Positions 2,972 to 18,467 of a stretch of DNA of 28,844 bases are shown here, piece after piece. Each line of letters begins with the position of its first letter. The stretch's first letter is position 1. The position numbers and the translations under genes are program-made. The DNA is taken from positions 1-28,844 of the IMG/VR virus record IMGVR_UViG_3300030118_001361; one strand, written 5' to 3'. The notes under the pieces are model-generated. The model saw nothing but the letters and a program-made list of their open reading frames with translations. It ran no database searches and was not told where the DNA came from. This DNA comes from a virus.

Positions 2972-3141
2972 AAAAGTATATTAAATCAATAGGCAAAACT
3001 ATGCCAATGTTATTACAGATGTTATCTAATATAGATACTGACGATGATAAATATGCTTTTGCAACAGGTGCAGAGGAATATCCAACAACAATAAAAGAAA
3101 CATTAAAAAGAATAAAAGATATGCTATGGCAGAAAAAGTAA
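2962..3141 (+). CDS. Small hypothetical protein (59 aa, below the ORF-track cutoff) immediately upstream of the tape-measure-like gene
   Basis: ATG at 2962, TAA at 3139-3141; MELEKYIKSIGKTMPMLLQMLSNIDTDDDKYAFATGAEEYPTTIKETLKRIKDMLWQKK. It overlaps the upstream stop by 10 nt and the downstream start by 16 nt, the same coupled packing as its neighbours. Confidence 0.4.
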   Translation: MELEKYIKSIGKTMPMLLQMLSNIDTDDDKYAFATGAEEYPTTIKETLKRIKDMLWQKK

Positions 3142-4877
3142 CAATAGAGGTTGACGCAGAGGTAAAAAAAGCGTTAGATAATTTAGAGAAAATAAAACAA
3201 AAGATTGATGATATTTCTGATGATACTAAAGAGGTCGGAGATTCAGCAAAAAAGGCAGCAGAGGGAACAAAAACTTTAGCTACAGGTTTTAATGCCGTAG
3301 GCGTAGCTATGAAAGCTGCAAACTTTACTTTAGTTTCAAAAATGGTTAACAAATTATTTGAGGGTTTACAAAAAAACCAACAAATAGCAGATGCTGTTTC
3401 AACTGCATTTAATATTATTGGTGTAGTTACAGGTAAGGTTAGTGAAGTAATTACAACTGCTGTAAATAGGGCAGGAGCATTAACAGGTAATTTTGACGCT
3501 TTAGGTAGAATTATAACAAACTTAATTAAACTTGCTTTAAATCCTGTAAAACTTGTTTTTAATAGTTTAGCTTTGGTTATAAAAGAAGTACAATTATCTT
3601 GGGAGCAGTCGTGGTTAGGTAAAGGAGATGTAGCTAGAATACAAGAGTTGACACAACAAATAACAGGATATAAACAAGAAATAAAAGATGCAGCAGAAGA
3701 AACTTTAAAAGCAGGTAAAGGTATTGTTGTAGATTTTAGAGAAGGAATTGGAGAAGTTGTTAAATTAGGAGAAGTAGTAAGAACAGAATTTAACAATACG
3801 TTTAAAGACTTAACAGTAAAATCAGTATTAGATCAAGCAGAAGCAGTTACAAAAGCTACAACTAACATTGGTTTACTACAAGCTAAATTAAATGAAGTTA
3901 GGATAGAATTTGAAACACAAGCAGAACAACAAAGAGCAATAAGAGATGATATTAGCCAAAGTATAGATGACAGAATACAAGCAAATGCAGAACTATTAAG
4001 AATTTCACAAGAACAAGCAGATGCAGAAATAGAAGCTATAAAAGCACAGCAAAGTGCATTAAGGCAAAGAATGGCAGTAGAAGTTGATAATGCTGATTTA
4101 AAAGCACAAATAGCAGAGCTAGACAATGCTGCATTAGAAACAGAATTAAGAAGAACGCAGTTAGCAAAAGAAAGTAAAGAACAAGAAAACGCTTTAGATC
4201 AAGAAAGAATTGCAAACAAATTAGAATTAGATAGAATTACAGAGCAAGAATTAGAAAAACAAGAAATAGAACTTACTGCTGAAAGAGATAGATTAATAAG
4301 ATTAGCAGAAGTTTCTTATACTGTAGAAGAAGAAAAAAATGCTAAAATATTACAAATAAAAAATAAATTTGATAGGGATATACTAAAAGCAGAAGTAGCA
4401 ATGCAGTCAAAACAAGAGGCAATGAGGCAACAAGAACTGCAAAGAGAAAGAGCATTACAAGAAAATAAAATGGCTGTTATAAGTGGTGCTTTAAGTGGTA
4501 TTGGTGCATTGGTAGGTAAAGAAACACAAGCGGGTAAAATGTTAGCAGTAGCACAAGCAACCATAGATACATACGCAGGTGCAACAAAAGCGTTAGCACA
4601 GGGTGGTGTTCTAGGTTATGTTGGTGCAGCAGGTGTTATTGCAACAGGTATAGCTAATATTAAAACAATTACACAAACGCCTATACCTGATCAACCAGAC
4701 GGACCACCACCACCTGCTCCTGAACAAATAATGCAAAATGCACCTGAAGAATTGGCTTTGCCTACATTTGGTGCAATAGAAGCAGAAGCTCCACCAGTAC
4801 AAGCATACGTTGTGGAAAGTGATGTTAGTAACGCACAAGCAATAGCAGATGAATTAGCGTTACAAGCTACGTTGTAA
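3126..4877 (+). CDS. Tape-measure-like / internal virion protein (583 aa)
   Basis: Long A/E/Q/K-rich coiled-coil stretches are followed by a Gly/Ala-rich hydrophobic segment (GALSGIGALVGKETQAGKMLAVAQATIDTYAGATKALAQGGVLGYVGAAGVIATGIANI) and a Pro-rich tail (PDQPDGPPPPAPE). The antisense strand carries only low-complexity shadow ORFs. Confidence 0.55.
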   Translation: MAEKVTIEVDAEVKKALDNLEKIKQKIDDISDDTKEVGDSAKKAAEGTKTLATGFNAVGVAMKAANFTLVSKMVNKLFEGLQKNQQIADAVSTAFNIIGVVTGKVSEVITTAVNRAGALTGNFDALGRIITNLIKLALNPVKLVFNSLALVIKEVQLSWEQSWLGKGDVARIQELTQQITGYKQEIKDAAEETLKAGKGIVVDFREGIGEVVKLGEVVRTEFNNTFKDLTVKSVLDQAEAVTKATTNIGLLQAKLNEVRIEFETQAEQQRAIRDDISQSIDDRIQANAELLRISQEQADAEIEAIKAQQSALRQRMAVEVDNADLKAQIAELDNAALETELRRTQLAKESKEQENALDQERIANKLELDRITEQELEKQEIELTAERDRLIRLAEVSYTVEEEKNAKILQIKNKFDRDILKAEVAMQSKQEAMRQQELQRERALQENKMAVISGALSGIGALVGKETQAGKMLAVAQATIDTYAGATKALAQGGVLGYVGAAGVIATGIANIKTITQTPIPDQPDGPPPPAPEQIMQNAPEELALPTFGAIEAEAPPVQAYVVESDVSNAQAIADELALQATL

Positions 4878-4891
4878 ACAATTTTAAACAA

Positions 4892-4904
4892 TTTATATTT
4901 ATAA
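4892..4904 (+). promoter_or_regulatory. Copy of the conserved 13-mer TTTATATTTATAA, 2 nt upstream of the protease ATG
   Basis: The same exact 13-mer also occurs at 8705..8717 and 24998..25010, always just 5' of a structural-gene start. Confidence 0.35.
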
Positions 4905-4906
4905 GT

Positions 4907-5920
4907 ATGAGCAAAGAAAAAATTAAAAAAGTAGAATTAATTATAGATGAAGAAGCAGATAGATTTGGTGTAGAAGCTATCAGTCTAGTTGAATTTCCAG
5001 CGATTGAAGAAAACTTTATGTTTTTTAATAAAGATCAATTTTTAAGTTTAGCTAAATTAGATGAAGAACAAAAAACACTAGTTGGAGCAGTTCTAATACC
5101 TAATAAAGAAATACCTAGATACGATCAAGAATTAGACGAAAAGTACACAGTGTTTTTTACAGAAGATACTATAAAAAAAGCTCAGGAATTATTTATGTCA
5201 AGTCTAAGAAACAACAATGCTACCTATGAGCATAAAGTTCCTGTTAAGGGATTAAGCGTAGTTGAGAGCTGGATAAAGGAAGACGAAAAAAATGACAAGT
5301 CTAACTCTTATGGATTTAAAAAATTACCACTTGGTACTTGGTTTGTAAAAATGAAAGTAAATAATGATGAGATATGGAATAGTGTAAAAGAGGGCAAAGT
5401 AAGGGGATTTAGTATAGAGGGGTTTTTTACTGACAAAATAATTGAAGCGTCAAGACCTAAAGATATTATAGATTTAGCTGAAGAATGTACTGACTGTCCT
5501 GATGAGGTTACATTAGGAAAGATTAGAGATATTATACTAGAAAATGAATTGTCAGTAGTAGGTACATTAGATGGCGAACCTTTATTTGCTACTAAAGAAG
5601 AAGCTAAGATATATGCAGAAATGTTTAAAGGTTGTAAAGGTTTTCATACTCATAGAGTAAATGGTGTTGTAAGATATATGGCTTGTGAAACACACGCAGA
5701 TAGCACAAAGGTTGAATATACAGAAAATGAATTAGGAAAGAAACGTAAAAAATATAAGAAAAAATACAAGTATGTTGAATACGCAGACTTTGTAAACAAT
5801 CAGGCATTAGCTAAGTATTCTTGGGAACAATGTATAAGAGATATGGTAAAACAATACGGCAACAAAGAAACTGCTGCTAAAGTATGTTCTTCCATAAAAA
5901 ATAGGACTGTAAATAGGTAG
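4907..5920 (+). CDS. Prohead protease, XkdF-like N-terminal domain with a Cys/His-containing C-terminal extension
   Basis: The N-terminus (VELIIDEEADRFGVEAISLVEFPAIEENFMFF...LVGAVLIPNKEIPRYD...YTVFFTEDTIKKAQELFM...ATYEHK) looks like the PBSX XkdF-type phage protease family. The gene lies directly upstream of the scaffold and capsid genes. Confidence 0.65.
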   Translation: MSKEKIKKVELIIDEEADRFGVEAISLVEFPAIEENFMFFNKDQFLSLAKLDEEQKTLVGAVLIPNKEIPRYDQELDEKYTVFFTEDTIKKAQELFMSSLRNNNATYEHKVPVKGLSVVESWIKEDEKNDKSNSYGFKKLPLGTWFVKMKVNNDEIWNSVKEGKVRGFSIEGFFTDKIIEASRPKDIIDLAEECTDCPDEVTLGKIRDIILENELSVVGTLDGEPLFATKEEAKIYAEMFKGCKGFHTHRVNGVVRYMACETHADSTKVEYTENELGKKRKKYKKKYKYVEYADFVNNQALAKYSWEQCIRDMVKQYGNKETAAKVCSSIKNRTVNR

Positions 5921-5968
5921 TCCTGTGAACAATTATTTAAGTTTAATATTTATAAAAAAAGAATAACA

Positions 5969-6667
5969 ATGACTACAATAGAAAAAATCAAAAAACTCTT
6001 ATTATCAAAAGAGGAAAGCAAAGAAACTAAAATGTATGCTGAGATGATTTTAGATGATGGTAGAGTACTAGCAACAGAAGATGATCAGTTTATGATTGGT
6101 TCTGTTGTAATGGTTGTTGGAGATGACGGAGAAACGTCGCCTTTAACAGCAGGTACTTATACTATGTCTGATGGTGCTAAATTAACCATTGATGAAGATT
6201 CTAAAATTCTTGACATGGGAGAAGAAAAAGAAGCAGAAGAAGTTGAGAATGAAGAAGAAAAAGAGGAAATGCAAGAAGAAGAAGAAAAAGAAATGGAAGA
6301 AATAGATGAGGAAGAATTATCTAAAGCAATATTTGATCACACACCTGATCACGTTAGTAAAGACAAAGCTAAAGAAATGGCTAAAAAAGTAAAAGAAATG
6401 GCTTATGGTAACAAAGAAGAAATGTCAGAAGAAGTAGAGGAAGTTGAAGAAGATAAAGAAGAAGAAATGGTTGAGATGTCTAAAGATATGATTTCTTCAT
6501 TAGTAGAAGAAGTTGAGGAACTAAAATCTCAAATAGTTGAATTAGAAAAAACTCCAGGATCTGTGGGATTTACTCACAACCCTGAAGTATATAATAAATC
6601 TGAAAAAGTAGATTTATCAAAGATGACTGCTATGAAACGAGCAGCATATTACATTAATAACAAATAA
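5969..6667 (+). CDS. Scaffolding-like acidic protein
   Basis: It has an extremely Glu-rich, helical, low-complexity core (EEKEAEEVENEEEKEEMQEEEEKEMEEIDEEE...). It sits between the protease and the major capsid gene. Confidence 0.6.
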   Translation: MTTIEKIKKLLLSKEESKETKMYAEMILDDGRVLATEDDQFMIGSVVMVVGDDGETSPLTAGTYTMSDGAKLTIDEDSKILDMGEEKEAEEVENEEEKEEMQEEEEKEMEEIDEEELSKAIFDHTPDHVSKDKAKEMAKKVKEMAYGNKEEMSEEVEEVEEDKEEEMVEMSKDMISSLVEEVEELKSQIVELEKTPGSVGFTHNPEVYNKSEKVDLSKMTAMKRAAYYINNK

Positions 6668-6678
6668 ATATTTAAAAA

Positions 6679-7671
6679 ATGGCAAATAACAATTATAATT
6701 TATCAAAAGAGTATCAGTTTGACATAACTGTTACTGACAATACTTACGCAGGTAAGTTAGCTTTGCCTTATGTAACTGCTGCAGTTAAAAGTCCTGACAC
6801 AGTTGCTAAAGGTTATGTAAGAACAATAGATGGTTTAAATAGAAAAGCAGTAATTTCTAATTTAGGAATTAATGATCCTATTGTTGCTGCATCTTGTTCT
6901 TTTTCATCAGGTAATGACACATCATTAACTGAGCAAGTTTTAACACTTACTGACTTAAAAGTAAATGAAGAAATTTGTAGAGGTACTATTTTTCCTACTT
7001 GGATTGGAGAAAATATGGACAGAAACGGAAACCTGCCAGGAACGTTTGAAGATTTCTTATTATCTACTGTTGCTGGTAAAGCAGCAGCACAATTAGAAAA
7101 TGGAATTTGGGTAGCAGACGCTTCTTCAATATTTGGAGCTGGGTTTTTATCTAATGATGGAGTATTTGACCAATCAGGTCTTAACGCCTCAGCTTGTGCT
7201 GACTTTACACAATCTACTTTAAATTCAGGAGCAGCTACTACTAATGCTAATATAGATGACGCATTAGCAACAGTATTTAATGCTGTAGTTGGATCACACC
7301 CTGGATTAATTGATAAGCCAGGATTTGGATTCTATATGAACAACAAAATGTATGGATTCTATGGACAATTTTTAACTGCTTCTGGTTCTGGACAAGGTAT
7401 CAATATGAAAGGTTCAGATCAGAGTATTGATGGTTTAACATACTTAGGTTACCCAATTTACAGATGTCCTGGTATGCCAGATGACGCTATTGTTGCAACA
7501 TATAAAGAAAATTTGGTATTTGGAACTAACCTAGCTACTGATTGGACAGAAGCAAGAGTTATACCAACTTATCAGTATGATGGCTCAGACAATGTAAGAA
7601 TTGTTATGAACTTTGCAATAGGTGTACAAACTGGAGTTAAAAATGACGGAGTTGTTGGTTGTATATTCTAA
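6679..7671 (+). CDS. Major capsid protein
   Basis: A 330-aa protein in protease-scaffold-capsid order, followed by the strongest intrinsic terminator in the window. The composition is typical of capsid proteins. Confidence 0.75.
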   Translation: MANNNYNLSKEYQFDITVTDNTYAGKLALPYVTAAVKSPDTVAKGYVRTIDGLNRKAVISNLGINDPIVAASCSFSSGNDTSLTEQVLTLTDLKVNEEICRGTIFPTWIGENMDRNGNLPGTFEDFLLSTVAGKAAAQLENGIWVADASSIFGAGFLSNDGVFDQSGLNASACADFTQSTLNSGAATTNANIDDALATVFNAVVGSHPGLIDKPGFGFYMNNKMYGFYGQFLTASGSGQGINMKGSDQSIDGLTYLGYPIYRCPGMPDDAIVATYKENLVFGTNLATDWTEARVIPTYQYDGSDNVRIVMNFAIGVQTGVKNDGVVGCIF

Positions 7672-7685
7672 ATTGAATTAAATTA

Positions 7686-7713
7686 GGGGTGTGAAATACC
7701 ACCCCTTTTTTTT
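7686..7713 (+). terminator. Rho-independent terminator after the capsid gene
   Basis: GGGGTG (7686-7691), an 8-nt loop, CACCCC (7700-7705), then T8 (7706-7713). Confidence 0.8.
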
Positions 7714-7745
7714 AAAAGAGTATTAATAATATAAAATAAATAAAC

Positions 7746-8351
7746 ATGGCTTGTAATTTAACACGAGGTTTATTAGTTGACTGTAAAGATCAAATAGGTG
7801 GACTGAAAAAAATCTTCTTTACTCAGTCTTATTGTTCTGACATTAGAGCAAGTGCTACATTTAATGGTACTAATGCTTTACAAATGGACACGGCAGGTTT
7901 TACTAATTGGGATATTTACGGTGGTTCTACTGTAAATGTTTTTCAGTATGATTTAAGACCTAATCTTTCATCTATGACAGTAAATGTTAATAGTGATCCT
8001 GCAACAGGTACTACATTCTTTGAACAAACTCTTTCTATTACTCTACAAAAATTATCAGTTGCACAGACTAATGAACTTAAGCTGATTTCTTATAATAGAA
8101 GTCAAGTATTTGTCTTAGACAATAACGATAATGTATTTTTGCTAGGAATGGATAATGGTTGTGATGTTTCAGGTGGTACTGCGGTTAGTGGTGCTGCTAA
8201 AGGAGATATGACGGGTTTTACTTTAGAACTTAGAGCAGAAGAAAAAGATCCTTTAATTTGGCTTCCTGCAACTGCTGGTGGTGGAACTGCTAAATATCCA
8301 TTTGATGGATTAAGTGATGAAGCTGCTTTAAATATTGCAGTAGGAACATAA
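7746..8351 (+). CDS. Candidate major tail (tube) protein
   Basis: A 201-aa protein with the pattern C..D.IGGLKKIFF...VFVLDNNDNVFLLGMDNGCDVSGG...GDMTGFTLELRAEE, which recalls siphovirus major tail proteins. It is bracketed by two terminators, suggesting high expression. Confidence 0.4.
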   Translation: MACNLTRGLLVDCKDQIGGLKKIFFTQSYCSDIRASATFNGTNALQMDTAGFTNWDIYGGSTVNVFQYDLRPNLSSMTVNVNSDPATGTTFFEQTLSITLQKLSVAQTNELKLISYNRSQVFVLDNNDNVFLLGMDNGCDVSGGTAVSGAAKGDMTGFTLELRAEEKDPLIWLPATAGGGTAKYPFDGLSDEAALNIAVGT

Positions 8352-8374
8352 TTAATAAATCGTTACTCAAAAAG

Positions 8375-8400
8375 AAAGGGGCAATATAGCCCCTTTTTTT
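8375..8400. terminator. Bidirectional intrinsic terminator between convergent genes
   Basis: AAAGGGGC / loop AATATA / GCCCCTTT, followed by T7 on the + strand and a T-rich tract on the - strand. It lies between the + gene ending at 8351 and the - gene ending at 8402. Confidence 0.75.
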
Positions 8401-8401
8401 A

Positions 8402-8590
8402 TTACCAAGATTTAACTTCATTATAAACTTTGTCAAATTGACTTATCATATCTTTTGACAAATCTTCTTTATATTGTCCTTGCATAAAATTTTTATTTGT
8501 TTTATATACATTACCATTTAGCAACATTAGTATTTTATTATTATAGATAAAATAAGTTACATTGTTATTTTCATAGATTCCATTTTTCAT
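8402..8590 (-). CDS. Hypothetical 62-aa protein, an isolated reverse-strand moron inside the structural region
   Basis: ATG-initiated ORF ending right at the bidirectional terminator, with about 100 nt of very AT-rich DNA upstream of it (8591-8690). Confidence 0.5.
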   Translation of the reverse strand: MKNGIYENNNVTYFIYNNKILMLLNGNVYKTNKNFMQGQYKEDLSKDMISQFDKVYNEVKSW

Positions 8591-8704
8591 TACTTTTTTG
8601 TTTTAATTATTATACTACATAATATATAAAAAAAATTTAACATAAATACTATAATTATAAAATAATTTTAATAAAATATACAAGTTGTGAACAATATAAT
8701 GACT

Positions 8705-8717
8705 TTTATATTTATAA
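8705..8717 (+). promoter_or_regulatory. Copy of the conserved 13-mer TTTATATTTATAA, 11 nt upstream of the ATG at 8729
   Basis: Exact match to 4892..4904 and 24998..25010. Confidence 0.35.
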
Positions 8718-8728
8718 TAAACTATATT

Positions 8729-8944
8729 ATGGCTTGGAAAGTTAAAGACGAATACAAAGACCTAAAACCAATAAATATGAATTTGGCTTATGGTCAATTA
8801 TTACCGCACCAAATAAAAAATTTAAGCGATGAGGTAAAAGATAAATATTTTACAAACGAATCTAAATCTAAGAAGAAGGTAAAAACAAAAAAAGTAGAGA
8901 TAGAAGATGATTTAGACTTTATAGGTGGTAACAATGGGAACTAA
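8729..8944 (+). CDS. Hypothetical protein (71 aa from the ATG at 8729; the ORF track starts at a GTG at 8687)
   Basis: The in-frame ATG at 8729 (MAWKVKDEYKDLKPINMNLAYGQ...) follows the conserved 13-mer. The upstream GTG extension is a hydrophobic, AT-rich translation. Confidence 0.45.
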   Translation: MAWKVKDEYKDLKPINMNLAYGQLLPHQIKNLSDEVKDKYFTNESKSKKKVKTKKVEIEDDLDFIGGNNGN

Positions 8945-9077
8945 AACAGAAAACGTAGATATAAACAAAAATATGTACCAGGAACTTATTGAAAAACTAG
9001 CTACTGTTGAAGATTCAGAAGAACAAGCAAGACTAGTTAAAGAATATTATACTAAAATTTTTACAGTTAGAAGTTAA
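8934..9077 (+). CDS. Small hypothetical protein (47 aa)
   Basis: MGTKTENVDINKNMYQELIEKLATVEDSEEQARLVKEYYTKIFTVRS. Its TAA shares a base with the next ATG (TAATG at 9075-9079). Confidence 0.4.
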   Translation: MGTKTENVDINKNMYQELIEKLATVEDSEEQARLVKEYYTKIFTVRS

Positions 9078-9679
9078 TGGCTACATACAATTTAAATTAT
9101 TCTGAATCAATGAGTACACTACAATATGTGTACTTTTATGAAAACTTAGCAAGTGCAATAGATACAAGTACATTATCAGGTAAAAATTTACTGTTTTATA
9201 TAAGAGGTAGAGAAACTAATTTTATTAGAACCGTTGCTGCTTATCCAACAAATAGTGGTGACTATAATAGTCCTACTTTTTTAAACAATGACAGATATTG
9301 GACTTTAAGATTAACTACATTTTATCCTACTACTAGCAACATATCTAATTATGACACTACTAGCAATTTAGCTAAAAGGCAGGGTGGTGTAGTTATTCCT
9401 ATTGGTGATACTTATGATATTGAAGTATATTATACTTCTTCTAGTTATGTAAACATTTTAAATGTTGCTACTGCAACTAAAATACCTGGAATAAATATAG
9501 TTTTAAATGTTACAGTAGATGAAACTTTTGATTCTATAGAAACAGATAACCCTTTAAGTTACTATACAGAATATGCAAATAATGATTTAATAGCTCAAAG
9601 TGTAGGCACAAAAGGATATAGTAGTGATAACAATAGAGATAGTCAGTATGGAACTCAAAACTGGCAACCAACATACTAA
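9077..9679 (+). CDS. Hypothetical virion-module protein (200 aa)
   Basis: Clean ORF tightly packed just upstream of the portal gene. No recognisable motif. Confidence 0.5.
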   Translation: MATYNLNYSESMSTLQYVYFYENLASAIDTSTLSGKNLLFYIRGRETNFIRTVAAYPTNSGDYNSPTFLNNDRYWTLRLTTFYPTTSNISNYDTTSNLAKRQGGVVIPIGDTYDIEVYYTSSSYVNILNVATATKIPGINIVLNVTVDETFDSIETDNPLSYYTEYANNDLIAQSVGTKGYSSDNNRDSQYGTQNWQPTY

Positions 9680-9681
9680 TT

Positions 9682-11871
9682 ATGAAGAAAAAAGACAATA
9701 TATCAGTAATACATTTAGCAGAATATAATCTGCCTACAATTACAGAAACAAACAATAAAGACTGGATTCAATTTGGATCAGATAATTTGTACCCTCAATA
9801 CTTACTAGAACTATACAACGGTAGTAGTATTAACAATGCTATTATAAAAGGTGTTAGTAGTATGATTTATGGCGAGGGTTTAGACGCTACTGATAGAGAA
9901 GATGACGATAATAAAAAGGGTAATTGGTTAGCTTTAAACACTTTGTTACATAATTCGCCTAAAGATACGTTAAAATGTTTAGCGTTTGATTTAAAGCTAT
10001 TTGGAATGTGCTATGTTAATACTATATGGAACAGACCTAGAACAAAGATAGTAGAGGTTAGGCATATACCTGCACAATATATAAGAAGTGGTAAAGCTGA
10101 TGCTTATGGTAAAGTAAATGAGTATTATTATAGTGCCGATTGGGAAAACACTAGAAAACACAAACCAAGATACTATAAAGCATTTGACTTAAAAGATAGA
10201 ACAGATGCAAATCAAGTTTTATGTATAAAAGATTATAGTCCTGGATCTTACTACTATGCAACTCCTGACTATCAGGGTTCTACTAGCTACATACAATTAG
10301 ATATGGAGATTGCACAATTTCATTTGTCTAATATCAAATCAGGTATGTTTCCGTCTATGGCAATAAATATGTCAAACGGAATACCAACAAGAGAAGAAAG
10401 AAGAACTATAGAAAGACAAATAAACGCTAAGTTTGGTGGTTCAGGTAATGCGGGTAAAATACTATTGACGTTTAATGATGGTAAAGATACTGCTCCTGAG
10501 ATAGTACCTATTAATGCTAATGACAATTCTGATAGCTACCAATTTTTATCTACAGAAACAACTAGAAAGGTTTTAACAGGACACAGGGTTACAAGTCCTT
10601 TATTATTTGGAGTAAAAGGAGATGGTTCAGGCTTTGGTAATAATGCAGATGAACTTAGAGATAGTTACAGCCTATTTAACAATACAGTTATAAAGCCATT
10701 TCAAAACACACTTTTAGAGGGTTTAGAGCCAATATTACACGCAAACGGTATAGAACTTGATTTATACTTTAAAACGCTAAAACCTGCTGATTTCATTGAT
10801 ATTAGTAATGTAAATAAACTTGATGAAGATGAACAAGAAAAAGAGGGTATAGATACTGATAACAATGAACCAATAAAAAAAGAGTTTAAAGACTTAAAAG
10901 ATATAGATACTAAGCCTACAAAAGGTATGATAGAACAGGCTAAAATTGGTTTAGAAATGCGTAAGGAATATGGTAGAGGTGGAACTATGGTTGCAGTTGC
11001 AAGAGCGCGTAATATTGTAAACGGAGATAATTTAAGTTTAGAAACAATTAGCAGAATGAACAGTTTTTTTGCTAGACACGAAGTAGATAAAAAAGCAGAG
11101 GGCTTTAATCCTGGAGAAAAAGGTTATCCCTCAGCAGGAGCGATAGCATGGAAGTTGTGGGGCGGAGATGCAGGTCAAACTTGGGCAAAAAAAAAAGTAG
11201 AAGAAATTAAAAAAGTAAGAGAAGATTTAGACCTGCCTAAAAATGATGAACAAGCATATATAGAATACTTTACACAAAATGCAATAAAGCTAGATGATGA
11301 TTGGGAAGAATTAAGAGTAGATACAGTTGATACTAACGAAGAAGAAGAAGAAAACTTTTACAAGTTTGCAACTGATGTTCCTGGCGGAGATACCGCAGGA
11401 AACTTATTAAAAGAAGCTACTAAGATTGGATTGTTTAAATTGTATTACAGATATTCAGCAAATATTTCAGCTAATAGTAGAGATTTTTGCAGAATAATGG
11501 TAGCACTTAGAAAAGCTAGAAACGTATATACAAGAAAAGCTATTTTAAATGCAGGTAGTAGAGCGGTAAATCCTGGATTTGGAAAGAATGGAAGCAATAC
11601 ATATTCAGTTTGGAATTGGAAAGGTGGAGTATATTGTCATCATTTTTGGGAGCGGGTATGGTATTTTAGAAAAAGAGTACCTAAAGGCGAACAAATAACA
11701 ATAGACGGAAAAACATATAAAGGTGGTCAAGTGTTACCTGATACAACAATTAGAAATTATAAAAAAGTTACAAATGCTTTTGCGGAAAGAATGGGGGTTA
11801 ATATGCCTTTTAATGATACTAAGGCAACTACTGCTCCTATCAACACTCCAACAAGAGGTAAATACAGTTAA
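9682..11871 (+). CDS. Portal protein fused to a C-terminal SPP1 gp7 / Mu F-like head-morphogenesis domain (729 aa)
   Basis: The N-terminal about 380 aa are portal-like (YQGSTSYIQLDMEIAQFHLSNIKSGMFPS...INAKFGGSGNAGKILLTF). An acidic linker follows, then the module RGGTMVAVARARNIV...LWGGDAGQTWAKKK. The MuF-like end reads SRDFCRIMV...YSVWNWKGGVYCHHFWERVW. Confidence 0.7.
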   Translation: MKKKDNISVIHLAEYNLPTITETNNKDWIQFGSDNLYPQYLLELYNGSSINNAIIKGVSSMIYGEGLDATDREDDDNKKGNWLALNTLLHNSPKDTLKCLAFDLKLFGMCYVNTIWNRPRTKIVEVRHIPAQYIRSGKADAYGKVNEYYYSADWENTRKHKPRYYKAFDLKDRTDANQVLCIKDYSPGSYYYATPDYQGSTSYIQLDMEIAQFHLSNIKSGMFPSMAINMSNGIPTREERRTIERQINAKFGGSGNAGKILLTFNDGKDTAPEIVPINANDNSDSYQFLSTETTRKVLTGHRVTSPLLFGVKGDGSGFGNNADELRDSYSLFNNTVIKPFQNTLLEGLEPILHANGIELDLYFKTLKPADFIDISNVNKLDEDEQEKEGIDTDNNEPIKKEFKDLKDIDTKPTKGMIEQAKIGLEMRKEYGRGGTMVAVARARNIVNGDNLSLETISRMNSFFARHEVDKKAEGFNPGEKGYPSAGAIAWKLWGGDAGQTWAKKKVEEIKKVREDLDLPKNDEQAYIEYFTQNAIKLDDDWEELRVDTVDTNEEEEENFYKFATDVPGGDTAGNLLKEATKIGLFKLYYRYSANISANSRDFCRIMVALRKARNVYTRKAILNAGSRAVNPGFGKNGSNTYSVWNWKGGVYCHHFWERVWYFRKRVPKGEQITIDGKTYKGGQVLPDTTIRNYKKVTNAFAERMGVNMPFNDTKATTAPINTPTRGKYS

Positions 11872-12447: not shown

Positions 12448-12518
12448 TATGATTACTAAACAAAAAGTTAAAGAAAGACAAAAAAACATAACTAAATTAA
12501 AAACTTATTTAAAGAAAA

Positions 12519-13064
12519 ATGGCAGGACAAAGACTAACAGACAAAACGGCTCTAAATAACCATACAGGATCAGGAGATTTATATATGGTAGTGGACGTAT
12601 CAGATACAAGTTCTAGTACAAGCGGTACGTCAAAAAAAATAGATTCTAAATTTGTAATACAAACAGATAAAATTACAATATCAGCAGCAGAATTTGGTGC
12701 TATGGACAGTTCAGGTAGTGCAGGTAAATTTAAAACATTAGTATCGGCTCCAGGTAGTGGTTATGCAATAGTGCCTTTAAATCTAGTTGTTGTAGTAACA
12801 GGTGTAACAGGTCCTTCTGCTGTAATTGCAACATTATATGCGGGGTATCTCAATAATTCTACTACTCAATTTGTTTACGCAAAATCTAAATTTATGCAAA
12901 ATTTTTTATTTGCTAATACTTTAGTTATGGCTAAAGACGGAAACAAGTATAGTAACAATACTACAATTGATAATTTACCTTTTTATATGTATTCTAGTGG
13001 AAATTTTGGTGGTAATTTTGGTGCAGATGTATATATAACATATCAAATAATAAAATTAGCATAA
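12519..13064 (+). CDS. Hypothetical virion protein (181 aa)
   Basis: Clean ORF. The N-terminal motif LTDKTALNNHTGSGDLYMVVDVSDTSSSTSGTSKKI is seen by eye in structural proteins of flavobacterial phages (from memory, unverified). Confidence 0.45.
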   Translation: MAGQRLTDKTALNNHTGSGDLYMVVDVSDTSSSTSGTSKKIDSKFVIQTDKITISAAEFGAMDSSGSAGKFKTLVSAPGSGYAIVPLNLVVVVTGVTGPSAVIATLYAGYLNNSTTQFVYAKSKFMQNFLFANTLVMAKDGNKYSNNTTIDNLPFYMYSSGNFGGNFGADVYITYQIIKLA

Positions 13065-14095
13065 TGGAAACATCTAAATATATCTATGCTTTACTAATAA
13101 TGCTTGTATTTGGTGTAGCAACCTGTAAAGGACAATTTTTTAAATATGCAACTTTCTATACGTCTATGAACATAAATACAAGTATGGTAGAAGATCAAGA
13201 CTATAGAGCAATAAACAGAGGTTATGAAGAAATTACACAAATCAATCCTTATGACTATTCTTTCCAAATTGGGATTAGAAAGGTTGCAAGATACGACTTT
13301 GAACAGAAAAAACGGACTTGGTATACGGGTTCTGATGAGCAAAGCTATAGCGATAATACTACTATCTCTAATAATATTGGGTGGGAGTATTTATTTAATT
13401 ACGCTTTTATACGTCATCGTTCTGAAAAATTTACTAATCAAGATTTTTGGATTAGATATTTAGGTAATAAAACTGTTACAAAAGCACAAATAAAGAATGA
13501 TGAAGCTAGAGATTTACAATTTACATCATTTGATACTAGATATAGAATAAACAAAGGTAGGTGGGATTTTACATTTGGTCTAGTAGGTAGAGGTCATAGA
13601 GTTTATGGCTACAATCCTATTGCAGAAACTTGGGAGAAAGGACAACAAACATTTTTTGATTTAGCTAATGATTTTGGTTATTCAAGACAATTTGTAAATG
13701 GAGATTGGCACTGGTTTAAAAACGATGAATTATTAGCAACGTCAAACGATGAGTTTTTTAAGCATTATTTTGGTTCAGCAATAGCTCAGTATAACCAAAA
13801 CGAAATAGACGCATTAGGTAGCGTTTATGAGCTATCTACAGTGCTTGGAATATCTTACTATAAGTACAGTAAAGACTTTTGGTTGTTAAGTTGGGTAAAT
13901 GTACTGCCATATCACTACGGACTAAATGATTTTAGTTATGATTATGAACAAGCTCCTATTGATGTTGATTTAGGACTTGTTACAGGTTGGAAGATAACAA
14001 AGTCATTAGGGGTATTTATAGAGGGTACTTATTTAAGGTATTGGGAAAAGCCTATCTATGAATGTAAATTAGGGTTTAATTATTTAATATTTTAG
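13064..14095 (+). CDS. Secreted outer-membrane beta-barrel-like protein (343 aa)
   Basis: It starts with a signal peptide (METSKYIYALLIMLVFGVATC-KGQ) and has many alternating aromatic/polar strands. The C-terminus ...KLGFNYLIF ends in Phe, like a BAM beta-signal. TAATG couples it to the upstream gene. Confidence 0.55.
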   Translation: METSKYIYALLIMLVFGVATCKGQFFKYATFYTSMNINTSMVEDQDYRAINRGYEEITQINPYDYSFQIGIRKVARYDFEQKKRTWYTGSDEQSYSDNTTISNNIGWEYLFNYAFIRHRSEKFTNQDFWIRYLGNKTVTKAQIKNDEARDLQFTSFDTRYRINKGRWDFTFGLVGRGHRVYGYNPIAETWEKGQQTFFDLANDFGYSRQFVNGDWHWFKNDELLATSNDEFFKHYFGSAIAQYNQNEIDALGSVYELSTVLGISYYKYSKDFWLLSWVNVLPYHYGLNDFSYDYEQAPIDVDLGLVTGWKITKSLGVFIEGTYLRYWEKPIYECKLGFNYLIF

Positions 14096-14097
14096 TT

Positions 14098-14607
14098 ATG
14101 AAAAAATTGTTATTATTTTTTGTGTTTAGTTTTGGCTTTAGTCAATCAAATTGTGAATTATGTGTAGAGCAAAATGGTTTTTATTGCGGAGATGATGAAT
14201 CTAATTGGACACAATATTCTCCTAATGGTTGTGTACCTAATGGTTTAAATGATTTGTTTTATCTTAACGATGGTTGGTCAGATTGTCAAGATTCAAGCGA
14301 TGAGCAAGATGCAGTACCAACAACTTTAGCTGATTGTGATATATACAATATTGCAGATACTATATTTATAACTGATACTTTATATGTTGATGTTATAGAT
14401 ACTTTGTATATAAACACAATAGATACTATAAATGTAACTGAATATATAGATTGTATTACAGGTTTGCCATGTAATAATTCTGCTATTGTAGAAATATTAA
14501 ACAAATCTAAAAACGAAAATAAAATATATAATATTGATGGTAAAGAAATATATAGACGTAAAGGGTTATATATAGAGAATGGAAAAATTAATTTTAAAAC
14601 AAAATAA
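14098..14607 (+). CDS. Secreted Cys-rich protein with an LDL-receptor class A-like Ca-binding motif, DT-rich octad repeats and a short T9SS-CTD-like tail
   Basis: Signal peptide MKKLLLFFVFSFGFSQ, six Cys in the first 80 aa, and DGWSDCQDSSDE (14269-14304). Repeats run DTIFIT/DTLYVDVI/DTLYINTI/DTINVTEYI (14356-14451). The C-terminus is KIYNIDGKEIYRRKGLYIENGKINFKTK. Confidence 0.5.
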   Translation: MKKLLLFFVFSFGFSQSNCELCVEQNGFYCGDDESNWTQYSPNGCVPNGLNDLFYLNDGWSDCQDSSDEQDAVPTTLADCDIYNIADTIFITDTLYVDVIDTLYINTIDTINVTEYIDCITGLPCNNSAIVEILNKSKNENKIYNIDGKEIYRRKGLYIENGKINFKTK

Positions 14608-14609
14608 AT

Positions 14610-14792
14610 ATGAAAAACGTAATAAATAAAATGATAAACAGTAGAAAATTTTGGTATGGATTATCTATACTAATGCTTATAATGTTTTCAGAAGATTTAG
14701 GAATTAGTGCAACAAAAATGCAATCAATGTTAATTGTAGTAGTAGCTTTAATATTAGGTCAAAGCTATGCTGATAAATCTTGCAGTAAATGA
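14610..14792 (+). CDS. Small two-TM membrane protein (holin/antiholin-like)
   Basis: 60 aa with hydrophobic segments FWYGLSILMLIMF and MLIVVVALILG. ATGA couples it to the next gene. Confidence 0.45.
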   Translation: MKNVINKMINSRKFWYGLSILMLIMFSEDLGISATKMQSMLIVVVALILGQSYADKSCSK

Positions 14793-15058
14793 AGATAAAC
14801 GAAAAATCAGAGTTCACACTTGATTTAAAGACAATTATAATGGTAGTTGGCTTTGCTATATCACTATCTGCAACATATTTTACATTGAAAGCTGAGGTTG
14901 AATTAGCAAAAACACTACCTAAAAGTGAAATATCACGTTCAGAGATGGATTTAAAGATGGAGTTAATTAGTAAAACTGTTTTATCAAACGCAGAAAAACT
15001 AGGCAAAATGGAAAGTGCCGTTGAAAAAATAGAGGAACGGGTTTACGAACTAAAATGA
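14789..15058 (+). CDS. N-terminally membrane-anchored coiled-coil protein (i-spanin-like topology)
   Basis: A single TM (IIMVVGFAISLSATYF) is followed by a charged helical region (EVELAKTLPK...KLGKMESAVEKIEERVYELK). ATGA overlaps occur at both ends. Confidence 0.4.
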   Translation: MKINEKSEFTLDLKTIIMVVGFAISLSATYFTLKAEVELAKTLPKSEISRSEMDLKMELISKTVLSNAEKLGKMESAVEKIEERVYELK

Positions 15059-15432
15059 AATTTTTAAAATACATATTACTATTGTTGGTAGGACAGACCA
15101 TAGCACAAACTACTGTTACAACTGAAAGTGCTTTAAATAAGCACACAAAAATTAATGGGATAGTTGTAGTAGAGTTTTGGGCAAAGTGGAATGATAAAAA
15201 TGCTTGTAGTTTTTTAAAAGACTTGGAAGATTGCAATACTGTTAGAGCAGATATTGGAATTAGTACAACACTACAAGAAAAATACGATATAGAAGTCCTA
15301 CCAACTTTAGTTGTTATTAACAATGGTGTTGAAATAACACGTTTTACAGGTAACATTTTATTTCAGCTAAATGTTAAAAAACAAGAAGTACAAGCCAAAA
15401 TAGATAGCATAATAATAAGTAAATTTGAATAA
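15055..15432 (+). CDS. Secreted thioredoxin-fold protein lacking the CxxC active site
   Basis: Signal peptide MKFLKYILLLLVGQTIAQ. VVVEFWAKWNDKNA aligns by eye to thioredoxin VDFWAEWCGPCK, and a cis-Pro-like LPTLVVINNGVE is retained. NDKN replaces CGPC at 15178-15201. Confidence 0.55.
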   Translation: MKFLKYILLLLVGQTIAQTTVTTESALNKHTKINGIVVVEFWAKWNDKNACSFLKDLEDCNTVRADIGISTTLQEKYDIEVLPTLVVINNGVEITRFTGNILFQLNVKKQEVQAKIDSIIISKFE

Positions 15433-16046
15433 TGAAACTAACATTAGATTTAATAGAAAACGCAGTAAAAGATAAAGGTTATAATTGGTTTGATAAAGGA
15501 GATTACAATTTAAATATAGTTGGTGTTAGAAATAGCGAAACCAACAACGAGGTTACAAATAAATTTGATGATAAAATTACACTATCTTACAAAGTAGATG
15601 GTAAATGGGAATTTTATAGTTTTGACGCTACTACGGATCCAGGTAAATATTGGGTAGAAAATATAATGAAGGTAGAGGGTGTTGCTTGTTTAAAGCCTGG
15701 ACAATACAAATCATACAGAATAGATAAGCACAGAGGTATTTATGATTGCTTAGCACAGAGGGAAGGCGAAGTAGAAGTATATAGAGATAACAACAAAGAT
15801 GGTTGCTATGATTTAGACGATGACAATACACAAACAGGTTATTTTGGAATTAACATACATAGAGCAACTGCAAGAGAGGGTAAAAAATCAACACAAGTAG
15901 ATAAATGGTCAGCAGGTTGTCAAGTTATAGCAAGTAATGATGATTGGAACGATTTTATATTTGCTTGTTATAAAGCTAGAGAAATTTGGGGAAACAAGTT
16001 TACTTATACATTAATTAATAGTGACGATATATATGAAAATTCTTAA
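15432..16046 (+). CDS. Candidate endolysin / peptidoglycan-active enzyme (YkuD-like His...SxGC motif)
   Basis: NIVGVRN...TTDPG...GQYKSYRIDKH...GINIHRATAREGKKSTQVDKWSAGCQV resembles L,D-transpeptidase-fold catalytic His/Cys signatures. It lies directly upstream of, and overlaps, the holin gene. Confidence 0.45.
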   Translation: MKLTLDLIENAVKDKGYNWFDKGDYNLNIVGVRNSETNNEVTNKFDDKITLSYKVDGKWEFYSFDATTDPGKYWVENIMKVEGVACLKPGQYKSYRIDKHRGIYDCLAQREGEVEVYRDNNKDGCYDLDDDNTQTGYFGINIHRATAREGKKSTQVDKWSAGCQVIASNDDWNDFIFACYKAREIWGNKFTYTLINSDDIYENS

Positions 16047-16416
16047 AAAATTATTAGGTACAGATAAAGTTATTGATAGTGTAGGTGGTATTATAGATGA
16101 CCTTGTTACTACTAAAGAAGAAAAAATACAAGCTAAAACAAAGCTAAAAGAGATTATCAACTCTTATAAAATAGAGGTAGAAAAAAACATAACAGCACGT
16201 TGGGAAGCAGATGCTAATGGTAATGTACTAACACGTTCTGTTAGACCTTTAGTTTTAATATTTCTTATAGTTTGTACTATGTTACTTGTGTTTATAGATA
16301 GTGGTTCTATAGCATTTGAAGTAGCAGACAAATGGACGGATTTATTACAACTTACATTAATAACAGTAATAGGAGCATATTTTGGTGGACGTTCGGTTGA
16401 GAAACTAAAAAAATAA
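16033..16416 (+). CDS. Holin (3-TM, GTA-release holin-like). The likely start is the ATG at 16033; the ORF track used a GTG at 16021.
   Basis: A charged helical N-terminus is followed by RWEADANGNVLTRSVRPLVLIFLIVCTMLLVFI and LLQLTLITVIGAYFGG TM segments. It overlaps the lysin 3' end. Confidence 0.55.
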   Translation: MKILKKLLGTDKVIDSVGGIIDDLVTTKEEKIQAKTKLKEIINSYKIEVEKNITARWEADANGNVLTRSVRPLVLIFLIVCTMLLVFIDSGSIAFEVADKWTDLLQLTLITVIGAYFGGRSVEKLKK

Positions 16417-16476: not shown

Positions 16477-17151
16477 ATGCGTGTTTCTAATGGTGGTGTA
16501 GTAAATAATGTTCTTGTTATTGGAGATTTACACGAACCTTTTTGCTTAGATAAATACCTAGAATTTTGTGTATCTAAATATGAACAATTTGATTGCACAG
16601 AAGTTGTATTTATAGGAGATATAATAGACAATCATTATTCAAGTTATCACGAAACAAATGCAGACGGAATGGGTGGAGCAGATGAATTAGAACTGTCTAT
16701 AAAACGTATTGCTAGATGGTATAAAGAATTTCCTATAGCAACTGTAATAATTGGAAATCACGACAGAATGATTTTTAGGAAAGGGCAAACGTCAGCAATA
16801 CCTAGTAAATGGATAAAAAGCTATAAAGAGGTTTTAGAAGTGCCTAATTGGAACTTTGTTGAAAGATACGTTAAAGATGGTGTTCAATTTTTACACGGAG
16901 AAAGTGGAACAGCCAAAACAAAGTGCAAAAGTGATATGATGAATACAGTACAAGGTCATTTACATACTCAAGCATATTGCGAACACTTTGTCGGTCAAAA
17001 TTTTAGAGTTTTTGGAATGCAGGTAGGTTGTGGTATAGATCACGAAAGTTACGCAATGGCTTATGCTAAATACGGAAAGAAACCTGCTATAGGTTGTGGA
17101 GTTGTTTTAAACAATGGTAAGTTACCTATAAATCTACTAATGGAATTATAA
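16477..17151 (+). CDS. Calcineurin-like metallophosphoesterase
   Basis: All canonical motifs occur in order: GDLHEP (DxH), GDIIDN (GDxxDR-like), GNHD, LHGE, GHLH. Confidence 0.8.
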   Translation: MRVSNGGVVNNVLVIGDLHEPFCLDKYLEFCVSKYEQFDCTEVVFIGDIIDNHYSSYHETNADGMGGADELELSIKRIARWYKEFPIATVIIGNHDRMIFRKGQTSAIPSKWIKSYKEVLEVPNWNFVERYVKDGVQFLHGESGTAKTKCKSDMMNTVQGHLHTQAYCEHFVGQNFRVFGMQVGCGIDHESYAMAYAKYGKKPAIGCGVVLNNGKLPINLLMEL

Positions 17152-17415
17152 AACAATACCTTTTAAAACTTCACGTTCTCTTATAAAGTTTTCATAATCT
17201 AAAGCAGATTGAATTAGATAGTATCTTTTAAATTTCTTAACATCTCCGTACATATTTTTTTTGCTTATATAAAAAGATTCTATTCTATAATCATCATTTT
17301 TTAAATCTCTTATTACACCCTGTAAATCTAATATTATAAGTTTTTGCATACATTCTAAAGTAGTTATGCTAAAATTATCCTGGAAATATTTTATTAATTG
17401 TTCTTTTTGTGTCAT
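17146..17415 (-). CDS. Winged-helix DNA-binding protein (small phage HTH type), last gene of the reverse operon
   Basis: MTQKEQLIKYFQDNFSITTLECMQKLIILDLQGVIRDLKNDDYRIES... matches by eye the 'ITTLEA...I..L..RI.DLK..GY.I' winged-helix family. Its stop overlaps the convergent + gene by 6 nt. Confidence 0.6.
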   Translation of the reverse strand: MTQKEQLIKYFQDNFSITTLECMQKLIILDLQGVIRDLKNDDYRIESFYISKKNMYGDVKKFKRYYLIQSALDYENFIREREVLKGIVL

Positions 17416-17423
17416 TTTATTTA

Positions 17424-17570
17424 TTAAATTACATTATTAATTTCTTCTTTTAAATCTTCAAAATATTCTGTATCACTAATTAAATATATAAGATACTGTA
17501 TGTCTTTTTTTGGATTTTTTGATTTATTCAAAATAAAATCTATGTATTTATTTATTTGTTTTTCGTTCAT
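17424..17570 (-). CDS. Small hypothetical protein (48 aa, not in the ORF track)
   Basis: MNEKQINKYIDFILNKSKNPKKDIQYLIYLISDTEYFEDLKEEINNVI. It overlaps the 3' end of the upstream gene by 23 nt. Confidence 0.35.
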   Translation of the reverse strand: MNEKQINKYIDFILNKSKNPKKDIQYLIYLISDTEYFEDLKEEINNVI

Positions 17571-17769
17571 TACTTAATTCTATTATTATGTTATAAAAGT
17601 ATTTATAGTATTTGTCAAAATCTAACTGAGCCTCTTTAGTATATTTAAAACTTCTATATTCATCATAGTTGTTTATAGTATATTCTTTATTAAGATCAGT
17701 ATATTTTTTTTCTACTTTTTTGTGTGCTAAAGCTATTGCTAAAGTATCTGCATTTATATTTATGTTCAT
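17548..17769 (-). CDS. Hypothetical protein (73 aa)
   Basis: ATG ORF whose start overlaps the stop of the upstream 38-aa ORF (ATGA). Confidence 0.5.
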   Translation of the reverse strand: MNININADTLAIALAHKKVEKKYTDLNKEYTINNYDEYRSFKYTKEAQLDFDKYYKYFYNIIIELSNERKTNK

Positions 17770-18214: not shown

Positions 18215-18227
18215 TTAACTATATTTG
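18201..18227 (+). promoter_or_regulatory. Bacteroidota-type promoter candidate for the rightward early operon (TTTG-N15-TATATTTG)
   Basis: TTTG at 18201-18204 and TATATTTG at 18220-18227, 15 nt upstream of the ATG at 18243. Confidence 0.4.
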
Positions 18228-18242
18228 ATAAAATTATTTTAT

Positions 18243-18467
18243 ATGAGATTTACACAATTTAAAGCACAAGATGAAGTAAGAGAAACTTTGATCTTAGAGA
18301 TGATGAAAAATAAAGTAAGAAAAAATCACTTAGCAAAAGAACTAAATTTGTCATATCCGACAATGCTTTCTAAACTAGAGCAACCTTTTAGCTTTAAAGT
18401 AAGTGAACTTTTATTACTTTGTGAAATTGTCAAACTTGATATTAACGAATTATTAATTAAATACTAA
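18243..18467 (+). CDS. Cro/CI-like helix-turn-helix regulator (74 aa from the ATG at 18243; the ORF track used a TTG at 18225)
   Basis: RKNHLAKELNLSYPTMLSKLEQP is a classic HTH. It is the first gene after the divergent promoter region. Confidence 0.6.
   Translation: MRFTQFKAQDEVRETLILEMMKNKVRKNHLAKELNLSYPTMLSKLEQPFSFKVSELLLLCEIVKLDINELLIKY

Follow-up and report, generated by a model that had tools for sequence, protein, structure and literature searches.

Phages of Gram-negative hosts are known to open the outer membrane (OM) in two ways, by spanins, of which lambda Rz/Rz1 is a two-component example, and by disruptin. Intermolecular disulfides have been reported to be near-universal in spanins (PMC6139136), while disruptin, gp28 of phage phiKT, is a non-spanin solution to OM lysis in a phage that lacks spanins (bioRxiv 10.1101/515445). 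Phages of Bacteroides and Croceibacter have been listed as lacking spanins (PMC6139136), and Bartlau et al. recognised spanins in few cultured flavobacterial phages (PMC8776804). Kongari et al. (2018) remarked that "an OMP could act as an o-spanin", OMP being an outer-membrane protein, and gave no example (PMC6139136). Here we analyse a gene at positions 13064-14095 of the IMG/VR virus record IMGVR_UViG_3300030118_001361, a stretch of 28,844 nucleotides that we refer to as the window. We are highly confident, of both statements jointly, that this gene encodes an exported protein with a 12-stranded OM beta-barrel fold (Sec-exported, with a predicted location in the OM), and that it is the OM member of a conserved three-gene envelope module, together with a single-pass inner-membrane coiled-coil protein, here called TMCC, and a secreted thioredoxin-fold protein that lacks the CxxC motif. 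The features of the barrel gene are as follows.

13064-14095, + strand: outer-membrane beta-barrel protein (predicted with AlphaFold2 and Foldseek), 343 amino acids, ATG start, unannotated family
13064-13132, + strand: predicted signal peptide, residues 1-23, with predicted signal-peptidase-I cleavage between CKG and Q24
13283-13378, + strand: 32-residue connection between strands 2 and 3, residues 74-105 (segment map and indel map)
13598-13822, + strand: insertion between strands 7 and 8, residues 179-253 (AlphaFold2 secondary structure and alignment)
14063-14092, + strand: C-terminal beta-signal-like motif CKLGFNYLIF with terminal Phe (family conservation)

An earlier reading of this DNA from its letters alone, hereafter the original prediction, had pointed to an exported, OM beta-barrel-like protein in the late operon, directly upstream of the lysis genes. 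Our results support that description, including the open reading frame (ORF) for 343 amino acids on the + strand and its ATG start. This start codon overlaps the TAA stop of an upstream ORF, which encodes a 181-amino-acid protein without annotation, in the sequence TAATG; the proposed translational coupling therefore agrees with the start/stop overlap, and what had been worded as a gene "fused" into the late operon is a separate, translationally coupled gene. It is a real gene under purifying selection: compared with ten relatives that are 64-98% identical to it, dN/dS is 0.05-0.26. A set of 5.8 billion proteins contains 298 homologues, all of them unnamed or labelled "hypothetical protein"; a full HMMER scan gave 331 representatives of the family at 50% identity, and 232 IMG/VR loci encode a relative of the barrel.

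The structure of the protein was predicted with AlphaFold2 from two alignments. With 66 sequences the mean predicted local distance difference test (pLDDT) value was 74.5 and the predicted template modelling score (pTM) 0.70; with 91 sequences, including members of 30-37% identity, these values were 83.6 and 0.74. Both models contain the same 12 long strands and the same 75-residue insertion of helices and a small sheet at residues 179-253. Four amphipathic aromatic strands picked out by the original prediction correspond to strands 3, 7, 8 and 11 of the models, and over all 12 strands the mean difference in hydrophobicity between the two faces is 2.28, compared with 1.16 ± 0.27 in shuffled sequences. 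The matches returned by Foldseek from the PDB are membrane barrels only, outer-membrane or mitochondrial, headed by NanC, FapF, autotransporter beta-domains, the COG4313 channel, porins, OmpG and OMPLA. Since the template modelling scores (TM-scores) to these solved barrels are low (0.3-0.5), no particular barrel family is indicated. Even for NanC, the best match, the TM-scores are 0.32 and 0.48 with a root-mean-square deviation above 10 Å, and the protein neither falls into the KdgM/NanC sequence family nor superposes closely on NanC. At the C terminus, the family is dominated by GFNYLIF or close variants, with the consensus G[FI]NY[LI][IMVF]F; the final residue is F in 228 of the 269 unique full-length members (85%) and aromatic in 88%, so that the beta-signal proposed for this position is conserved across the family.

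If both termini are periplasmic, the periplasmic turns are of 2-4 residues except for the 32-residue turn at residues 74-105, and the indels of the family fall in three long external loops, L1, L4 and L5. The 74-105 connection is conserved in length, carries the motif GIRKIARFxYE...FYDG, and is also where model confidence is lowest; with the termini so placed it would be periplasmic and is a plausible docking site. The insertion at residues 179-253, which is putatively extracellular, comprises two short helices together with a small sheet and a long helix. Length varies more here than elsewhere in the protein, indel hot spots follow residues 193 and 210, and in homologues this segment contains DxDxDG-like loops. 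Two other signatures in the protein were considered and rejected. A CW_7-like peptidoglycan-binding segment at residues ~184-223, first seen as a profile match to the Cpl-7 lysozyme 5i8l (E 0.0018), is a chance match: its repeats are individually insignificant and it was gone with the broader 91-sequence profile. As for an OMPLA-type catalytic triad, inspection of the alignment by eye showed strong but incomplete conservation of S258 and H178 and gave no obvious candidate for a third residue.

The N terminus has the charged, hydrophobic and cleavage regions of a signal peptide, as had been proposed. Across the family strand 1 is entered through a conserved FFKY(S/A)T motif with a Q directly before it, and a Q lies within 12 residues before this strand in 219 of the 222 anchored members. 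The cleavage sites follow the pattern small-x-small/Q (the slash marks the cut), as in CKG/Q, AIA/Q, SFG/Q and AQA/Q. The original prediction had also considered VATC as a possible lipobox. This lipoprotein reading was rejected, since its Cys is restricted to one subclade, the residue at -1 is T, and a canonical lipobox is present in only 4 of the 222 anchored members. Given the family-wide Q before strand 1 and the rare and atypical lipobox, the barrel protein is, on the evidence of its sequence, not a lipoprotein, and signal-peptidase-I cleavage at CKG/Q fits all subclades. This "Q rule" of signal peptidase I in Bacteroidota has already been described in phage proteins (PMC10367356). Two further exported proteins of the window follow it, with GFS/Q in the gene starting at 14098 and TIA/Q in that starting at 15055.

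We then examined the surroundings of the barrel gene in its close clade, in the 51 IMG/VR loci that extend 3 kb or more beyond it on the downstream side. Upstream, the portal gene, a DUF6712 gene and the 181-amino-acid gene come in fixed order. Downstream genes, in order, are found in the following numbers of loci.

Gene 1: 169-amino-acid Cys-rich secreted protein, 50 of 51 loci
Gene 2: small protein with two transmembrane (TM) segments, 60-amino-acid type of the window, 35 of 51 loci
Gene 3: 89-amino-acid single-pass protein (TMCC), 43 of 51 loci
Gene 4: thioredoxin-fold protein, 51 of 51 loci
Gene 5: endolysin of the window's type, 15 of 51 loci
Gene 6: holin with three TM segments, 50 of 51 loci
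Gene 7: phosphoesterase, 47 of 51 loci

The eight loci without a detected 89-amino-acid gene carry a diverged copy of it (as in L056). Outside the clade, on unrelated contigs whose barrel homologues are 30-37% identical, the 169-amino-acid gene is missing and the TMCC and thioredoxin-fold genes are kept, either in the order barrel, TMCC, thioredoxin-fold (L083, L086, L087) or as TMCC, thioredoxin-fold, barrel (L081). An independent retrieval with the 89-amino-acid protein alone gave at least 567 IMG/VR loci on contigs of 6-110 kb, of which 80 were kept. The thioredoxin-fold gene directly follows the TMCC gene in 77 of these 80, and a barrel gene lies no more than 6 kb from the TMCC gene in 72. 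Six of the eight loci without a barrel sit at contig or locus ends.

All three genes are present in 145 loci. Their next commonest neighbours are the three-TM holin (phrog_3427, GTA_holin_3TM; 93 loci), a Peptidase_M15_3 endolysin (phrog_894; 84 loci) and the endolysin of the window's type (20 loci). The typical order is barrel, TMCC, thioredoxin-fold, then optionally a secreted Cys-rich protein and a second TMCC paralogue, followed by endolysin and holin. The types of endolysin and small holin are exchanged between relatives while the triad is constant, a mosaicism that one would expect a lysis cassette to show. The triad, which the original prediction had not recognised, is of wider interest than the single barrel gene: it is widespread and previously undescribed, neither it nor the barrel family having been found in the databases and literature searched. 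The barrel of the window has no match in Pfam, PHROG, NCBIfam or PADLOC, and 22 divergent members of its family have none in Pfam or NCBIfam. A tblastn search of 50,697 phage records found neither the barrel nor TMCC in cultured phages and gave one marginal match for the thioredoxin-fold protein. No cellular homologue of the barrel turned up in a close-family scan of GTDB genomes. A scan of genomes with TMCC retrieved only four contigs of metagenome-assembled genomes (MAGs), all with the same phage triad and some in plainly misassigned bins, and no isolate genome carrying the module was found. The module-bearing contigs in GTDB include L169 and L171, binned with a Woesearchaeota MAG, and L170, binned with a Maricaulis MAG; this archaeal and alphaproteobacterial placement is most likely a binning error.

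In the window, the genes between the barrel and the end of the lysis cassette are the following.

14098-14607, + strand: secreted Cys-rich protein, 169 amino acids, signal peptide GFS/Q; clade-specific accessory partner
14610-14792, + strand: 60-amino-acid protein with two hydrophobic segments, holin/antiholin-like (weak holin PHROG match)
14789-15058, + strand: TMCC, single-pass inner-membrane coiled-coil protein, 89 amino acids (co-occurrence and hydrophobic spacing)
15055-15432, + strand: secreted thioredoxin-fold protein, 125 amino acids, signal peptide TIA/Q (Pfam and PDB profile)
15432-16046, + strand: endolysin, 204 amino acids, without signal or anchor (phrog_3000, phrog_33083)
16021-16416, + strand: holin with three TM segments (phrog_3427, E 5.5e-26; Pfam GTA_holin_3TM)

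The run of exported and membrane proteins ending in endolysin and holin that the original prediction had described downstream of the barrel is confirmed by these PHROG matches. TMCC consists of one TM segment, a conserved EAKxLP hinge, a short stretch of alternating hydrophobic residues and a heptad helix with 3-4-3-4-3 spacing. Its periplasmic part comprises ~55-60 residues, 40% of them charged, and 130 of 138 members have no Cys. Two loci, L087 (1442-2056) and L084 (13271-13648), encode TMCC homologues with an N-terminal MshEN domain, which binds cyclic di-GMP (c-di-GMP); the matches to NCBIfam NF053729 score 55.6 and 42.7 bits, above the cutoff of 38. Because the MshEN domain is cytoplasmic, these fusions establish an N-in, C-out topology for TMCC. 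They also raise the possibility that a protein of a phage lysis cassette may sense c-di-GMP. In several loci a second TMCC paralogue lies directly upstream of the endolysin gene (L152 at 6686-7024, and L089-L091, L093 and L106), with the same N terminus and TM segment and a different periplasmic domain.

The thioredoxin-fold protein matches Pfam PF00085 Thioredoxin (E 2.7e-6, 27.8 bits against a cutoff of 23.5) and a PDB profile (E 2e-12), in which its NEKNQ is aligned to CGHC. The cis-Pro is conserved. The WCxxC motif is systematically replaced by WNxxN, in which both Asn are conserved, and any CxxC occurs in 1 of 134 members; the fold is presumably redox-inactive as a result, and judging from these residues the protein is very unlikely to be an oxidoreductase.

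Of the remaining genes in this block, the 169-amino-acid protein contains a DGWSDCxDxSDE motif that resembles low-density-lipoprotein receptor class A (Ldl_recept_a, sub-threshold, Pfam E 0.083) and a run of (D/E)T(L/I)Y-like repeats; its tail is weakly similar to another module-associated secreted family, and no type IX sorting domain was detected in it. The 60-amino-acid gene is replaced in relatives by one for an unrelated ~75-amino-acid protein with two TM segments. The endolysin of the window has no Pfam domain, and most relatives have a Peptidase_M15_3 protein in this slot (for example L056, 12456-12959). Elsewhere the module adjoins genes for large Cys-rich secreted phage proteins of 660-1100 amino acids (L129 at 1-2988, L135 at 6629-8614, L146 at 3647-6988, L160 at 6812-10048 and L117 at 2514-4901), built of repeated GC(T/M)D..A.NYN..AN.DDGSC units. 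Those of L129, L135, L146 and L160 end in a Por_Secre_tail sorting domain (Pfam E 3.5e-14 to 4.5e-8, above cutoff), and the phages concerned seem to carry genes for cargo of their host's type IX secretion system.

An exact direct repeat of 99 bp is common to positions 1-99 and 28746-28844, which identifies the window as a complete phage genome of ~28.7 kb, whether terminally redundant or a circular assembly; its G+C content is 29.6%. From the portal gene (9682) to the end of the holin gene (16416) all genes are on the + strand and are spaced by 2 nucleotides or overlap, with a 71-nucleotide gap at 12448-12518 as the sole exception. No terminator-like site was found on the + strand of the block 13064-16416. 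Promoter-like sites occurred at chance level only; this result is uninformative, and the promoter model is ill-suited to Bacteroidota. The window proteins that were scanned include no recognisable integrase. Downstream of the lysis genes, three small minus-strand genes (17146-17769) oppose a Cro/C1-type helix-turn-helix gene (18225-18467, +) across an AT-rich gap, in what looks like the early-late switch region. Within the 729-amino-acid portal protein (9682-11871), a segment of ~90-120 residues at ~407-526 shares 49-68% identity with regions that bear a capsid or portal annotation in Synechococcus phage S-CBS1 and in unrelated Roseobacter phages, and also matches PaBG (more weakly, ~41%) and phrog_2859; from these matches it looks like a mobile inserted domain.

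The host is probably a member of the Bacteroidota with a type IX secretion system, likely one of the marine Flavobacteriia. This assignment follows from the three Q-rule signal peptides of the window together with its low G+C content, from the type IX sorting domains on the large Cys-rich proteins next to the module in related loci, and from one carrier contig that is binned with a Sphingobacteriales MAG. It also follows from the nearest cultured relative, Nonlabens phage P12024S, whose portal and phosphoesterase are similar to those of the window; the portals are 35% identical, and the module is absent from P12024S.

Under relaxed lipobox rules, the window genome yielded only the VATC of the barrel itself and two short ORFs that run in the opposite direction, and the 159 related loci yielded six ORFs with a canonical lipobox, none of them a conserved family. 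A complete genome in which no plausible lipoprotein was found besides this atypical VATC has no canonical spanin, in line with the earlier failure to see an Rz/Rz1 pair. The original prediction had offered three roles for the barrel, namely OM disruption, superinfection exclusion or receptor masking, and a conduit. The gene context, by guilt by association, favours the first, and the other two remain candidates. In our view it could well be, at somewhat short of an even chance, that the triad spans the envelope and performs the OM step of lysis, with the barrel in place of the o-spanin lipoprotein. After export by Sec and removal of its signal peptide by signal peptidase I, which would cut before Q24, the barrel would be inserted by the BAM machinery of the host, the module being transcribed late, inside the lysis cassette. 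The three proteins would then link the two membranes, with the barrel as OM anchor, TMCC as inner-membrane anchor and the thioredoxin-fold protein as a periplasmic adaptor that may dock at the 32-residue turn. Intact peptidoglycan would restrain this link; when the endolysin, let out by the holin, has degraded the wall, the complex would destabilise the OM or fuse it with the inner membrane.

Several observations weigh against this model. The physical complex, the docking site and the lysis role are all inferred from gene neighbourhood, and the TM-scores of the barrel, whose closure is presumed, are low. The periplasmic arm of TMCC, at ~59 residues, is short compared with typical i-spanins, its lack of Cys means that disulfides of the spanin type are absent, and the MshEN fusions hint at regulation and not at a mechanical role. 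Furthermore, the barrel may be dispensable to the module: in 13 loci it lies 2-4 kb from the TMCC/thioredoxin-fold pair, and in L152 and L155, which have full flanks, the pair still adjoins the endolysin gene with no barrel gene within 6 kb. Distance-matrix (mirror-tree) comparison gave r = 0.88 for TMCC with the thioredoxin-fold protein, and for the barrel a partial r of only 0.11-0.29 once linkage was controlled; as evidence on the barrel this analysis does not discriminate.

Other functions have to be weighed against OM disruption. The barrel might remodel the cell surface, masking or replacing a receptor so as to block superinfection or adsorption to debris, with its partners aiding assembly or anchoring. 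Exclusion at the OM is an established phage strategy, as in T5 Llp, Cor and the PA-2 Lc porin, and BFVD holds several phage proteins annotated as outer-membrane protein or porin. Length varies mostly in the putative external loops L1, L4 and L5, among which are DxDxDG-like ones, as would suit a protein that is exposed at the surface and subject to diversifying pressure; however, conservation is even overall and the loops are not hypervariable in sequence. The gene also belongs to the late operon, where it is coupled to the lysis genes, and not to an early or lysogeny region, with no integrase found in the scan and no PADLOC match, and a link to TMCC, endolysin and holin across unrelated phage backbones would not be expected of a masking protein. 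We therefore consider this function unlikely. It is rather improbable that the triad is a sensor for the timing of lysis, one that relays an envelope or second-messenger signal to the holin in the manner of an antiholin or lysis-inhibition device and does not break the OM itself. The MshEN fusions would suit such a role, as would the position of the module among holin-like genes and the second TMCC paralogue beside the endolysin in several loci, and Lcc6 of Shewanella phage LambdaSo provides a precedent for an additional membrane protein needed at the holin step (bioRxiv 10.1101/2024.01.23.576932). Yet the fusion was seen only in L084 and L087 (L085 shares the barrel gene and stops short of that position), it is not obvious why a regulator should need an OM barrel, and genomes without spanins would be left without any OM step.

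Nor do the secreted neighbours decide for a type IX secretion partner, an anchor or shuttle analogous to PorP/SprF, PorQ or PorV for secreted Cys-rich phage proteins, a role that we regard as improbable. Such families are indeed frequent near the module (169 amino acids in 73, ~181 amino acids in 27 and ~741 amino acids in 31 of 160 loci), members of the large family bear the Por_Secre_tail domain (at the E values given above), and the 169-amino-acid gene directly follows the barrel throughout the window's clade save in one locus. But the window protein and the 22 divergent members matched no PorP/SprF or other type IX model in Pfam or NCBIfam at lenient E-values, where the PorP/SprF models, which we take to be PF11751 and TIGR03519, would be expected; the sole type IX chain among the Foldseek matches ranks 49th, and the 169-amino-acid protein of the window has no detected sorting domain. 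Moreover, several loci, such as L088, L092, L083 and L086, have the triad beside endolysin and holin genes without such a secreted protein, and the constant partners are TMCC and the thioredoxin-fold protein. Finally, the barrel could be an auxiliary solute channel that raises nutrient uptake during infection, like the 12-stranded NanC/KdgM or the Tsx-type barrels. Its best structural matches include the small substrate channels NanC and COG4313, and the porin-annotated phage proteins of BFVD could be cited here as well, but the TM-scores are low, late expression leaves little time for metabolic gain, the close-family scan of GTDB gave no cellular homologue (the four MAG contigs carry the phage triad), and the gene is constantly linked to lysis genes and to two non-transport partners. 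We hold this last role to be very improbable.

Judged by its context, the barrel module appears to be the best candidate yet for the opening of the OM by these spanin-less phages. It is concrete, abundant, well delimited and testable, being present in at least several hundred genomes of uncultured marine phages with a defined topology for each part. If the lysis role holds, the module would add a third route of OM disruption beside spanins and disruptin, change the annotation of lysis cassettes in a major group of ocean viruses, and represent the recruitment of a redox-dead thioredoxin fold and a barrel into membrane disruption. A bolder proposal, which we put forward only tentatively and with considerable doubt, is that the triad is an unrecognised class of OM-disruption machinery, a three-component spanin equivalent with a BAM-inserted barrel as its OM anchor, that prevails in marine Bacteroidota phages and is gated by c-di-GMP in some lineages. 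Should the lysis role prove wrong, the module would still be a new, widespread and unannotated phage envelope system.

Compared with known systems, the triad is most like the two-component spanins. It lies in the lysis cassette beside holin and endolysin, it has both an inner-membrane and an OM anchor in a genome with no other candidate for the OM step, and TMCC, a type II protein of the inner membrane whose periplasmic coiled coil is charged, has the character of an i-spanin. In contrast, its OM component is a 343-amino-acid barrel and not the small lipobox lipoprotein of an o-spanin, a periplasmic thioredoxin-fold component is added, TMCC is short and Cys-less, and Cys counts in the barrel are not conserved, so that the disulfides of spanins have no counterpart. 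The triad also has no sequence similarity to spanin PHROGs, and its role in lysis is inferred here. With disruptin the triad would share being a non-spanin answer to the OM step, whereas disruptin is a small cationic peptide of the antimicrobial type, without an integral barrel or partners.

The barrel taken alone has the fold class of the small 12-stranded barrels (NanC/KdgM, FapF, autotransporter beta-domains, COG4313 and OMPLA) and about as many strands, and like them it has a signal peptide and a beta-signal that ends in an aromatic residue. It differs from them in its low TM-scores, in having no Pfam or NCBIfam match, in its 75-residue insertion of helices and sheet and its long conserved periplasmic turn, in having no evident catalytic triad or passenger domain, and in being encoded by phages only. 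Like lambda Lom, the PA-2 Lc porin and the phage OMPs of BFVD, it is a phage gene product that would use the Sec and BAM machineries of the host to place a barrel in the host OM. Lom and Lc are barrels, T5 Llp and Cor exclusion lipoproteins; Lom and Lc come from genes of the lysogenic-conversion or moron kind and have clear homologues in cells, namely the Ail/Lom family and general porins, respectively. The barrel of the window, by contrast, has no detectable cellular relatives, and its gene is part of the lysis cassette, in phages that appear to be lytic, together with two fixed partners. Since phages were already known to encode OMPs and OM-acting exclusion proteins of this sort, and BFVD adds its OMP and porin annotations, the statement of the original prediction that none of its three roles is a standard annotated phage function was too strong for exclusion and masking. 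With PorP/SprF, PorQ and PorV the barrel shares the Bacteroidota context and a size of ~300-350 amino acids next to secreted proteins, some with type IX sorting domains; it differs in the absence of sequence or convincing structural similarity, and in that its secreted neighbours are accessory and the lysis genes constant. If the mechanism is not membrane fusion, the triad would stand further still from the known systems. Altogether, these comparisons suggest that the triad may work like a two-component spanin without being a member of that class, and that its barrel belongs to the broad class of OM barrels, outside any family described so far.

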